Positions 10,931 through 63,156 of a stretch of DNA of 63,156 bases are shown here, piece by piece. The notes under the pieces are model-generated. The model saw only the letters and a program-made list of their open reading frames with translations. It was not told the origin of the DNA and searched no databases. The stretch is taken from the NCBI GenBank assembly GCA_051382295.1, contig JBBCAW010000085.1:1-63156 (forward strand), given 5' to 3'. This stretch comes from Bdellovibrionota bacterium FG-1. GTDB taxonomy: Bacteria > Bdellovibrionota > UBA1018. Position 1 is the stretch's first letter, and each line of letters starts with the position of its first letter. The position numbers were made by a program, and so were the translations under genes.

Positions 10931-11032
10931 GGTTTCCGGTGAGTTGTTGCACGAAAGCAAACTTCCTGTTTTTACACAACTTTCGCCATCCATGGCTGTT
11001 GTGATTTTCGCGCAACAACTCACCGCGAAACC
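10931..11032 (-). repeat. structured palindromic element A (three-way junction with two GGA hairpins); candidate ncRNA or repeat
   Basis: 26-bp outer inverted repeat, inner CACAAC/GTTGTG arm capped by GCCATGGATGGC, plus AAACAGGAAGTTT hairpin (minus strand). Confidence 0.75.
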
Positions 11033-56830: not shown

Positions 56831-56893
56831 AAAAAAGCCCCAAAAACTATTCTCAACCTGTTTCCAAGAAGAGGAGTCTTTGGGGCTTTTTTT
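56831..56893. terminator. long-stem terminator downstream of ald
   Basis: AAAAAAGCCCCAAA...TTTGGGGCTTTTTTT. Confidence 0.75.
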
Positions 56894-60239: not shown

Positions 60240-61654
60240 GGTCGCCATTTTATGCGGTTTTACCGACCCTTTTATTGCTTGCACTGAGCTCGTTCGATAT
60301 CACCGCGCGGGCGGCTGAGATTCACTTACCGCTTCCGCAAATTGAGACACTTCCCAACGGTCTGCAGTTGGTTTGGTTTTTGAATGATAGTTTGCCGCTG
60401 GTGGATCTGGTTTTTTTGGTTAAATCGGGCTTTCGTGACGATCCCAGTGGAAAGTCTGGGACCGCAGAGTTCTTGGCCGCATCTTTAGATCGAGGGGCGG
60501 GGGGGCTGAGCGCGCAGCAGTTCGCGCACCACGTCGAGATGCTCGGCGCGAGTCGTTTTGTTTCGGCTGATGAAGATACTTTTAACATTGGCATGCACGG
60601 ATTGGCGCCGGATGCCCCGCGGTTGTTGGAACTTCTCGCTCAGCTAGCCTTGCATCCTGACTTTCCAGAGGCGGAGCTCAGTCGGGAGCACGCGCGAATC
60701 CTCGATCGATGGACGCATATACCGGATTACGGCGAAGCATTGGCGAACCTGACTTACCGACGTGCGGTTTCAGCGGCCACGATCTACGGTCGCGGGAGCT
60801 TTTTGTCGAGCCGAGAGTTTGATCAAGTCACCCGAGCCGATGTGATTACCTTTTATCAAAAACATTTTGTTCCGGCGAACGCTGTGTTGATGGTGGTGGG
60901 GCGGGTTCAGCAGGCTGAATTTCGAAAAGAGATTTTGCGTCTTTTTGGAAATGCTGACGTTTGGAAGGGGAGCGTGACGCATCGTCAATGGCGGGTCTTT
61001 GCTGATCCACGCCTGACTTTACGCAAAAATTCGATTCTCTTGGTGGACCGGCCTCACCTGACCCAGGCGCAGGTTCGGCTTGGATTTAAGGCACCTCTGA
61101 TCGGGGCGCCTGAGCACTATCCTTTGGTGGTCGCGAACGCCCTTTTGGGAGAGTACTTTAACAGTCGGCTCAACTCGCTGCTGCGAGATAAGCTGGGTTT
61201 GACCTATGGGGTGGGAAGCTCGTTTGCTTACAGCCAGGAGTTAGGCATTTTTACGGTTTCGGCCGCCACTCGCAATGAGTCGGTCGGTCAGTTGATCGAA
61301 AAAGCGACCGAGCTTTTACGGGATCTTAAAAAAGGCCCGATTTCAGGCGAAGAGGTTCAAACGGCCAAGGAATATTTGGAAGGTGGTTTTCCGTTGGGGG
61401 CCGCCACTTTGGGGGCGGTGGCTTCACGATGGCTAGCGGGTTATATTTATGATCTAGGTCCGGGGTATCTCAATGAATTTGTGCCTAAAATCCGGGCTGT
61501 GACCGCAGAGCAAGTCATGGCGGCCGTGGTTAAGGATTTGGATTTAGATTCGATGGTGATAGCGGTGGCTGGGGACGCTCCGTCGATCTTTAAAAGTCTT
61601 TCTGAGAGCAAAAAGAAAACTGTGATTCGAATTCAGGCCAAGGACTTACTGTGA
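60236..61654 (+). CDS. M16B peptidase non-catalytic partner subunit
   Basis: M16 fold without HxxEH, has SRL...LR.K.GLTY; signal peptide; 4-nt overlap with the catalytic gene. Confidence 0.88.
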   Translation: MRSPFYAVLPTLLLLALSSFDITARAAEIHLPLPQIETLPNGLQLVWFLNDSLPLVDLVFLVKSGFRDDPSGKSGTAEFLAASLDRGAGGLSAQQFAHHVEMLGASRFVSADEDTFNIGMHGLAPDAPRLLELLAQLALHPDFPEAELSREHARILDRWTHIPDYGEALANLTYRRAVSAATIYGRGSFLSSREFDQVTRADVITFYQKHFVPANAVLMVVGRVQQAEFRKEILRLFGNADVWKGSVTHRQWRVFADPRLTLRKNSILLVDRPHLTQAQVRLGFKAPLIGAPEHYPLVVANALLGEYFNSRLNSLLRDKLGLTYGVGSSFAYSQELGIFTVSAATRNESVGQLIEKATELLRDLKKGPISGEEVQTAKEYLEGGFPLGAATLGAVASRWLAGYIYDLGPGYLNEFVPKIRAVTAEQVMAAVVKDLDLDSMVIAVAGDAPSIFKSLSESKKKTVIRIQAKDLL

Positions 61655-61996
61655 TTTCTGGTCCATTCGGCATTTTCCCTCAAAATAAGCACCCGGCTCA
61701 AGCTTAAGGGTAGGGGTTTCGATATTCCCGATGACGCGTCCAGAGCCGGAGACGACTACTCGCGTTTTGGCGTAAATGTTTCCTTGGACGAAGCCATCCA
61801 CCCAGAGGACGTCGGCAAATACGTTGCCCTCCACCACCGCCGCCTCGCAAAGAATAAGGGTGCTGCCGTCTCGACCATGCGCTTCCCCGGTAATCCTGCC
61901 ATGAAAGCGGGTGATTTGATCGAAGGTCACTTTGCCCTCGATTCGGGTGCCTTCGGAGACAATGTTGAGTGAAGCTTCATGGAGCTGTTGAGTCAT
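61646..61996 (-). CDS. bactofilin (polymer-forming cytoskeletal protein)
   Basis: G..IEG.V, G.V.GNI.A...V......V.GNI....L..E.GA.FEG.C.M. Confidence 0.92.
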   Translation of the reverse strand: MTQQLHEASLNIVSEGTRIEGKVTFDQITRFHGRITGEAHGRDGSTLILCEAAVVEGNVFADVLWVDGFVQGNIYAKTRVVVSGSGRVIGNIETPTLKLEPGAYFEGKCRMDQKSQ

Positions 61997-62913
61997 TGGT
62001 CCACTCCCGGCTCAATGATTTCCGAACTCACTGGGTTTTGAGTTTTGGGCTTGGCTGCCTCTTTGGCGGCGGGCTTTGGGAGCTCTTTTGGAGTCACGAC
62101 TTTAGGGGCTACTACTTTTTGATAAAAAATCAGCTCACCCTCAAGGCTTACAATTAAAATCTCAACGTCAAGAATTTGGCTGGCGTTTTTGAGTTGGCCA
62201 AACTCTGCTTTGACCTCACGAAAGCGACTGACTGAGAAGTATTCGCCCTGCTTGGGTCCAATCAGGGACTCAGCCCCGGCCCGAGAAAAAACTCCATTAG
62301 GATAAGCCAATACGGTTTCGGGACCTCGCGCAAGCACGATAATTCGGCCTTGTTGGCTTCCCTCGTCGGTTGCTGTGTACTGCAAGTTAAAAGCAACTCT
62401 CAGGGACTTGCCGGTCCAGGTGAGTTTTGCGGGACTGACGGTAAAGGGAAGCTTGGCAGCGCCTTCACTTAAATTACGGGCTTGCCGCGGCAAGGCTGAA
62501 AAAAGCGGGATGCTGCCGCCGGGGGCGATGACTGCAGGCGCTTGAGCTGGGGGTGCGCTGACGATCACAGGAGGGGCCGAAGCGACGGGTGGGGCTGCGG
62601 GAGTTGCGATTGGCGCGGTCACAGCAACGGCGGCTTGGCTGATTTTAGCCTCGAGGGTCTTGTTGGTAGTTCGAAGTTGGCTGAGTTCCTGCTCTATATT
62701 GTTGACGTGCGTCGGGTCGGTATGACGGGCAACTCGGTAATATTTAATGGCAAAAAAGGCACTCAGGAGTGTGACTCCGATGAGGAGGCCGACGAGTGTT
62801 CCAAAACGCTGAATCCAGTTCAAAGAAAGCTGAAAGGTGCGAGCCGCTTGGTTCTCTTTGAAGACCAGGATCGTGACTTCGTCGGCTTTGGATGCGGGTT
62901 TGGGTTGAGCCAT
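61993..62913 (-). CDS. membrane-anchored coiled-coil + Pro/Ala linker + beta domain protein
   Basis: TM, coiled coil, C-terminal beta sandwich; coupled to the bactofilin gene. Confidence 0.75.
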   Translation of the reverse strand: MAQPKPASKADEVTILVFKENQAARTFQLSLNWIQRFGTLVGLLIGVTLLSAFFAIKYYRVARHTDPTHVNNIEQELSQLRTTNKTLEAKISQAAVAVTAPIATPAAPPVASAPPVIVSAPPAQAPAVIAPGGSIPLFSALPRQARNLSEGAAKLPFTVSPAKLTWTGKSLRVAFNLQYTATDEGSQQGRIIVLARGPETVLAYPNGVFSRAGAESLIGPKQGEYFSVSRFREVKAEFGQLKNASQILDVEILIVSLEGELIFYQKVVAPKVVTPKELPKPAAKEAAKPKTQNPVSSEIIEPGVDQ

Positions 62914-62924
62914 GGGTAACCAAA

Positions 62925-62953
62925 ACGTTAGCGTTTTACCTCAAAGGTGTCAA
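62925..62953 (-). promoter_or_regulatory. sigma70 promoter
   Basis: TTGACA-17-TAACGT, 11 nt before ATG 62913. Confidence 0.7.
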
Positions 62954-62957
62954 CGTT

Positions 62958-63056
62958 GGGTCTCCCGGTAAAAGGTGTCGGGGTCGGACATCCCTGTCCT
63001 CCGCGCTAAAAAGCGCATCCTGCGCGCGCGGATCCCCTCACTTTTACCGGGAGCCC
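62958..63056 (-). repeat. structured palindromic element B (same fold as element A)
   Basis: Outer CTCCCGGTAAAAG/CTTTTACCGGGAG stem, CCGCGC/GCGCGG arm capped by GCGCAGGATGCGC, plus GGACAGGGATGTCC hairpin (minus strand). Confidence 0.75.
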
Positions 63057-63118
63057 CTATGTGGGAACGGGGAACGGGGAGCCGCAGCGGTATGAGAACA
63101 TGCCCGCTGATATTGGAT

Positions 63119-63156
63119 CAGTACGGGGAGGTCACAGTACGGGGGAGGTCACAGTA
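63119..63156. repeat. 16-17 nt tandem repeat running off the window
   Basis: CAGTACGGGGAGGTCA, CAGTACGGGGGAGGTCA, CAGTA. Confidence 0.7.

Follow-up and report, generated by a model that had tools for sequence, protein, structure and literature searches.

Element B, on the minus strand at positions 62958-63056 of the window, belongs to a small repeat that is scattered over the genome of Bdellovibrionota bacterium FG-1 (G000) in about fifty copies. The window is the whole stretch of DNA analysed, 63,156 nucleotides, and constitutes an entire contig (C85). Database relatives of a protein encoded in it come mostly from Bdellovibrionota/Oligoflexia records. B probably represents a miniature repeat of TwoAYGGAY-like type, non-autonomous and dispersed through the FG-1 genome by mobilisation in trans as a folded single strand. 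The copies are dispersed, orthologous sites in relatives are empty, and constraint is specific to the strand carrying the GGA motifs, the GGA strand. As a counterpoint, this constraint on loops and strand also fits an RNA selected by the host.

Sequence and fold of element B

The letters quoted for positions 62958-63056 in the original prediction agree with the contig sequence, and the minus strand is predicted to form the three-way junction described there (-60.6 kcal/mol, z -7.21, with none of 200 shuffled sequences as stable). The plus strand folds about equally well (z -7.32), so folding energy cannot choose between the strands. The closing stem comprises a 5′ arm of subfamily 1 (63034-63056), which includes the 5′ GA of a tandem G-A and is assigned from fold and covariation, and a 3′ arm (62958-62983) which, from the position counts given below, is the polar end that abuts stop codons and promoters. 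Enclosed by this stem are arm 1 (63000-63032), consisting of a 7-bp stem, a U-rich bulge on the 3′ side and a capped hairpin with a CAGGAUG loop at 63016-63022, and hairpin 2 (62986-62999), with ACAGGGAUGU at 62988-62997. Both are assigned from the fold and a tally of loops, and all these parts are on the minus strand.

The 99 nucleotides originally delimited stand, but the B family runs further 5′, to a conserved CCCAC head at 63059-63065 (minus strand), where C7, C8, A10 and C11 are at least 90% conserved in an alignment of the family (A1). TRF identifies two tandem repeats on this side, one with a 7-nt unit in the 5′ leader (63063-63080, 2.6 copies) and one with a 17-nt unit at the contig end (63119-63156, at least 2.3 copies). 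A scan of the window against Rfam gave three matches, all at chance level and none at B. An intrinsic terminator role was considered and rejected; the single terminator-like prediction is the internal bulge of arm 1.

Two repeat families

B had been described as the second copy of its fold. Instead, the genome contains at least 43 B-type copies, recognised with a covariance model (R1) built from 32 B copies, and at least nine full A-type copies. R1 matches 43 of the 48 candidates scored, B itself with 128.7 bits, and the figure is a lower bound since only those 48 were scored. BLAST and nhmmer place 38 B cores in the genome at E below 1e-3, and a subfamily of four copies, B2, has another core within the same stem. 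Position counts use 51 copies, that is 52 minus one duplicated across two contig ends, with four partial copies skipped. The genes adjoining the copies are unrelated and include, by eye, topA, argS, mdh, pnp, ihfA, purF and aconitase.

Element A (10931-11032), a member of a sister twin-GGA family, has the same layout as B and is likewise on the minus strand, as predicted; 1 nt separates its 3′ end from the stop codon of a facing LMWPc gene. A genome scan finds 107 twin GGA hairpins against 46 and 43 in two shuffled genomes, an excess about the size of the A and B families. Pairwise alignment bears out the statement that A and B are unrelated in sequence, the best local match being 6 nt, but an inserted cassette common to both does not. 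Related versions of this cassette, about 77 nt in length, are present in seven copies, five of the B type and two of the A type. Two of the B copies are rearranged; in the three intact ones and in both A copies the cassette takes the place of two bases just 5′ of a loop GGA, the site in the B family being that of hairpin 2. The cassette brings two GGA hairpins in B, whilst in A one loop is ACGA. By eye, A and B have a GCC-NN-GGATGG hairpin and a GGTGAG/CTCACC stem segment in common. In one B copy everything between the two AGG is deleted.

A separate REP-like palindrome family is also present. It forms a 51-bp tandem of 3.4 copies at C3:125074-125248, with similar stretches on other contigs, and on C61 a RAYT-like gene is about 1.4 kb away from one match.

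Constraint on stems and loops

Of the cells in alignment A1, 94.5% are paired, and two-sided changes are seen in 19 of 34 pairs; none of 500 shuffles reaches the observed pairing and slid controls pair at 39-54%, although kinship among the sequences inflates such statistics. All 15 pairs of the closing stem covary, and there is little variation in arm 1. GGA is present in 31 of the 32 aligned copies at each loop (the C137 copy was counted by eye as without it in loop 2), while the base that follows, and in loop 2 the base that precedes, vary freely. An exact match to the high-affinity CsrA consensus ACARGGAUGU was correctly noted in B, but B is alone in this among the 32 aligned copies and the family consensus reduces to C-A-(N)-GGA-N-G. 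With symmetric scoring the closing stems show 25 G-U against 7 A-C on the GGA strand, and tandem G-A is retained in 36 of 40 B-type copies. The G-U excess, the kept loops and the tandem G-A together indicate that the GGA strand is the one folded and recognised, whether as RNA or as single-stranded DNA.

The original prediction argued for selection on structure plus loop sequence. Both are constrained, but the turnover of stems between A and B is weak evidence for selection because copying from arm to arm at the DNA level would give the same pattern. Stem subfamilies and hairpin-2 types assort freely (10/8/9/8), which implies exchange between copies or recurrent change.

Would a palindrome acting at the DNA level, with no protein partner, be sufficient? 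Template switching would match the arms and make tandem repeats, and gene conversion would keep the loops. The free assortment of modules is in keeping with this, as are the copy-specific 5′ tandem repeats and the near-perfect, copy-specific arms, tens of bp long, of a relative (G060). It leaves unexplained why GGA is kept while adjacent loop bases vary, why a two-GGA layout recurs with different cores across genera, and the strand bias. We judge it highly improbable.

The same strand bias invites a different reading, namely a dispersed, host-selected decoy in which GGA-strand transcripts jointly titrate CsrA in the manner of a distributed CsrB. The A-(N)-GGA-N loops, each of which is retained in 31 of 32 copies, the G-U bias and the tandem G-A on the GGA strand are all as a decoy would have them. 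CsrA of B. bacteriovorus represses a GGA-hairpin reporter, according to the part of that report covered (PMC13443453). The csrA gene is present in FG-1 and in 69 of 75 family genomes, a distribution that is uninformative because it is nearly universal. In FG-1 it lies, by eye, between flgL and a FliW-like gene, which marks it as the flagellar type with a protein antagonist and tells against a decoy. Several propagated loops, in the two A-family cassettes and in relatives, are ACGA rather than AGGA, and most of the 59 of 74 relatives with no R1 match have csrA, with the qualification that R1 sees B-like sequences only. The remaining evidence on this point concerns transcription and is given with the placement of the copies.

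Placement in the genome

Three divergent doublets share a common spacer, remnants of which are found 5′ of some single copies. Tandem repeats lie within 250 nt on the 5′ side of 11 of the 51 copies compared with 63 of 1027 other gaps (p 4e-4; this and the other p-values given here overstate significance, the copies being related). The repeat units are copy-specific and B itself has two such repeats. The corresponding count on the 3′ side, 0 of 51, is confounded because that side is mostly coding.

The end nearer to a gene is the 3′ end in 43 of 46 copies, and in 23 of the 27 copies with a facing neighbour the stop codon of that gene is no more than 10 nt from it. In convergent gaps 16 of 17 copies dock at a stop against a per-gap null of 0.43 (p 1e-5), and in co-directional gaps six of eight against 0.35 (p 0.03); a per-base null is too lenient and the per-gap null is the one trusted. 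Gene ends for these counts are from our own ORF caller. In 11 of the 24 copies whose next gene is directed away from the element, a sigma-70-like site begins between -4 and +14 of the 3′ end, compared with a background of 10-12% and 0 of 46 at the 5′ end, the scoring being based on approximations of the E. coli sigma-70 weights. Several other promoter-docked genes have the same 39-62 nt spacing as the bactofilin operon.

Three genes draw their last 5-15 codons from the element and diverge from their orthologues there, with the caveat that topA ends vary among relatives anyway. The topA gene and its convergent neighbour (C56:20277-22622 and C3:123814-124875) are together in G005 and G042 and apart in FG-1, where each terminates within a B copy of its own.

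Strong docking at stops and -35 sites is what would be expected of a host punctuation mark, a hairpin behind the stop codon that stabilises the mRNA 3′ end or affects termination like REPs, or one that insulates a promoter. Both strands of B fold, and REPs, which frequently lie near stop codons, reportedly stall ribosomes when within 15 nt of the stop, in the portion of that study covered (PMC12306157). Yet the mRNA of a stop-docked gene carries the non-GGA strand, whereas the constraint is on the GGA strand. There is no U tail on the non-GGA strand in any of the 51 copies, and relatives manage without the element at the same genes. A punctuation mark therefore seems to us decidedly improbable.

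Is the GGA strand placed to be transcribed, as a decoy would have to be? The upstream gene is directed into it in 26 of 46 copies. Against this, strong promoters upstream of the GGA strand number 3 of 47, no excess over a background of 16% for sites of the sigma-70 type, and U tails are found on this strand in 7 of 51 copies. In co-directional gaps the GGA strand is sense in nine copies and antisense in eight, and 12 copies lie between divergent genes. We regard a host-selected decoy as rather unlikely.

The bactofilin operon

B lies upstream of a minus-strand operon that begins with a gene for a 306-residue protein (61993-62913), which has no Pfam match and has orthologues in five of five relatives, and continues with the bactofilin gene (61646-61996, PF04519). 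The host promoter is outside the element. Its -35 hexamer (62948-62953, minus strand) is kept upstream of the orthologue in all five relatives, and the -10 hexamer (62925-62930, minus strand), separated by a 17-nt spacer and matching three of six consensus positions, is the same in three of the five. B was said to end 5 nt before the -35. Four bases intervene, and the -35 assignment is upheld by this conservation although the consensus promoter scan missed it. The -10 is only 11 nt before the start codon (62913-62930), so the operon mRNA, with a predicted start about 5 nt ahead of that codon, may be nearly leaderless.

R1 finds no match at the orthologous site in any of the five relatives. Since the -35 is kept in all five and B is absent there, B sits upstream of a promoter that predates it. 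Because of this position B does not serve the bactofilin operon as a CsrA operator. A cis-acting CsrA switch or a promoter element specific to this operon might be argued from the exact consensus motif unique to B, its end 4 nt before the -35 and, if another contig (C8) joins the window, possible read-through from the upstream gene. However, a transcript from the conserved promoter cannot contain B, which is wholly upstream, and adjacency to a -35 is family-wide, the same docking being seen at many unrelated genes. With the site empty in five of five relatives as well, a regulatory role for B at this operon is not supported, and a dedicated switch is hardly credible.

Four of the five relatives were parsed for upstream gene order, and in these a divergent gene begins 32-68 nt before the -35. 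In FG-1 the ancestral divergent gene is on C8, where TTGACA still comes 32 nt after it, ahead of a further 8.2 kb occupied by other genes; C8 terminates in 9 nt that match the end of the 17-nt tandem unit at the window end. The nine shared bases and synteny suggest that C8 joins the window, in which case B would bound an inserted block on its right side, and GTTGACA would stand at either end of it. This probable block of about 8.3 kb (C8:195935-204147 plus window 62948-63156), between the ancestral divergent gene and the bactofilin promoter, carries by eye HAD-like, adenosine deaminase-like and carbonic anhydrase-like genes.

Other rearrangements were observed. A 3.2-kb block at C3:63349-66600 lies 5′ of a cassette-bearing B copy, between genes that are adjacent in relatives, and its ORFs are, by eye, GNAT-type and HigB-like toxin-antitoxin. 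The gene that comes after the pal-region genes in five of five relatives is on another contig in FG-1 (C30:33948 as opposed to C13:118588-119085), and immediately upstream of it are a B copy and a promoter-like site. Elsewhere in the window a 23-bp inverted repeat with A/T tails (56831-56892), between an alanine dehydrogenase-like gene and fliL, is probably a terminator.

Could the element have carried such DNA? As a polar mobile element it would actively insert its 3′ end at the borders of transcription units (stops, tRNA ends and -35 boxes) and be able to carry DNA on its 5′ side, with the GGA loops serving as a handle for CsrA or a putative mobilising protein and as the target of further GGA cassettes. 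There are hints of this in the GTTGACA beside B, which, if C8 joins, recurs at the ancestral junction about 8.3 kb off, in the toxin-antitoxin-like block 5′ of another copy, and in the insertions and one deletion within copies, which map to GGA loops. At four other promoter-docked copies, compared with the same five relatives, one keeps its neighbour, a second has it 3.2 kb apart and a third has it moved, the fourth being unresolved. Displaced neighbours would be explained as well by permissive insertion sites as by carriage on the element, and we consider active insertion with carriage unlikely.

Distribution and probable mobility

R1 matches are found in 15 of 74 family genomes, with 1-14 copies each, and in three of 32 genomes from other families of the order. 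The other 59 of the 74 give nothing with R1, a model that detects B-like sequences only. There are likewise no R1 matches at 34 loci in relatives around eight element-flanking genes (mostly orthologues), nor in one stretch of FG-1. No same-genus genome is included in the comparison, hence there is no recent filled and empty pair for B. Across genera the cores differ and the two-loop layout stays. In G005 the stem of B surrounds another core, and this genome alone was matched in a BLAST-type search of 40 relatives. Some copies in relatives are positioned behind tRNA genes, on the opposite strand.

In G060 (L362-L372) twin-GGA cores are set in copy-specific, perfect inverted arms of tens of bp, several are nested in a second repeat, and several loops are ACGA. 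G059 has two identical 202-bp MITEs (L358/L359, C27 and C72) that enclose a twin-GGA module and have perfect 24-bp terminal inverted repeats and different 8-bp target duplications. The exact B core has two matches in a genome-contig database, one of them a folded relative, and none in a metagenome-contig database. A loose gapped pattern gives at least 120 loci in genome contigs, mostly unrelated; one of 16 retested with R1 scored.

Copy number, orientation and presence or absence in relatives had been put forward as the means to distinguish a regulatory RNA from a mobile miniature element. Once tabulated, these favour the mobile repeat. Within 60 nt of the 51 FG-1 copies there is no excess of target-site duplications, the counts for 5-, 6- and 8-mers being 12, 3 and 0 against 10.3, 2.8 and 0.2 by chance. 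R1 has no match in nine Y1/RAYT loci, searched to about 1.5 kb each side, and one copy is about 1.5 kb from an IS200-type gene on C21. Two candidate mobilisers, RAYT (Y1_Tnp) and RT, are without support, and neither tracks the element across relatives; four carriers in genus g53 have no Y1 match and G060 (83% complete) has no RT match. Inspection by eye of the proteins adjoining copies revealed no transposase, the families searched being Y1 and RT.

The mobile repeat that we favour may operate as follows. The full unit would be the divergent doublet, about 330-360 bp in length, with the 3′ ends of its two elements as outer ends, and single copies such as B would be halves with a decayed 5′ leader. 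A putative enzyme acting in trans would move the unit via a folded single strand. Selection may retain insertions, or 3′ erosions, that go no further than the nearest feature the host cannot lose, a stop codon or a -35. Copies would swap modules, and their stem arms might be kept matched either by selection or by arm-to-arm copying. Loops in GGA-sense read-through transcripts probably can bind CsrA, as a by-product or a weak decoy.

Repeats of the TwoAYGGAY type are widespread, and the FG-1 genome extends the type to Bdellovibrionota. It offers experimental handles in the polar 3′ end, a GGA-loop cassette found in two families, natural GGA-to-CGA variants and repeat-derived C-termini. Should the loops bind CsrA, a global regulator could be tuned through the number of copies; should they serve mobility, many predicted 'CsrA sRNAs' of such shape would be selfish DNA.

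Comparison with known systems

CsrB, CsrC, RsmY and RsmZ are sRNAs encoded at single loci, each carrying numerous GGA sites and equipped with a promoter of its own and a terminator. Their role is summarised in the part of PMC4333381 covered here. B resembles them in presenting GGA in hairpin loops with CsrA-type flanks, and differs in that each unit has two sites, the loci number about 50 and signals for a promoter or terminator are lacking.

REPs have a GT(A/G)G head directly 5′ of the palindrome, and REP, REPIN and BIME sequences are linked to RAYT transposases. In common with these the FG-1 elements are short dispersed palindromes, form doublets and lie near stop codons. Unlike REPs they have a branched 100-nt fold and GGA loops, and R1 is without a match in the RAYT-like loci. 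The CCCAC head of the B family is the reverse complement of GTGGG and points away from the stem, which again differs from the REP head.

The MITEs of DDE transposons are non-coding and multi-copy, with inverted ends and target-site duplication. The first three properties are shared, and the G059 relative sits inside such a MITE. In contrast, FG-1 copies are without target-site duplication and are asymmetric, with variable terminal stems.

The TwoAYGGAY motif (Rfam RF01731) was described by Weinberg 2010 (PMC2864571). Gardner and Eldai proposed CsrA binding and noted tandem G-A pairs in a stem (PMC4333381), and a preprint (bioRxiv 10.64898/2026.09.22.753630) describes these repeats as occurring in tens of copies and as divergent doublets, with 5′ repeats and a spread like that of mobile elements, and leaves open how mobility and CsrA regulation are linked; each source is cited for the part of its text that was covered. 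The FG-1 elements share the two GGA-loop hairpins on a common basal stem and the tandem G-A in a stem. As in Pseudomonas and other Pseudomonadota there are tens of intergenic copies, uneven copy number, the three divergent doublets and short 5′ repeats. Empty orthologous sites with patchy presence among relatives are a further likeness, as are variants with extra GGA hairpins and the CsrA binding proposed in the literature covered. The Pseudomonadota form is also characterised by an extension comprising three extra hairpins and a 3′ pseudoknot.

The differences are a host in the Bdellovibrionota, 5′ repeat units that are copy-specific, and loops in B of AGGAN and ANGGAN rather than AYGGAY. An AUGGAU loop does occur in A, in subfamily B2 and in many relatives. 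Against RF01731, with a gathering threshold of 43 bits, B gives no match, four A copies score 24-27 bits and a copy from a relative (L276) scores 42 bits (E 9e-4). Judged by these scores, A copies and this one R1 relative approach the Rfam family, whilst B, failing both the AYGGAY-loop and score tests, is not filed as a member.

The main text of the preprint has no mention of 'Bdellovibrio'. A literature search gave, within the text covered, no account of these repeats in Bdellovibrionota or of 3′-end docking, and nothing tying CsrA or GGA motifs to miniature extragenic repeats, transposition or insertion sequences. Neither the polar docking at stop codons and -35 hexamers nor the cassette present in both A and B appears in the TwoAYGGAY literature as far as it was covered. 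The additions made here to that literature are the TwoAYGGAY-like type in Bdellovibrionota, its polar 3′ end and the GGA cassette common to the A and B families.
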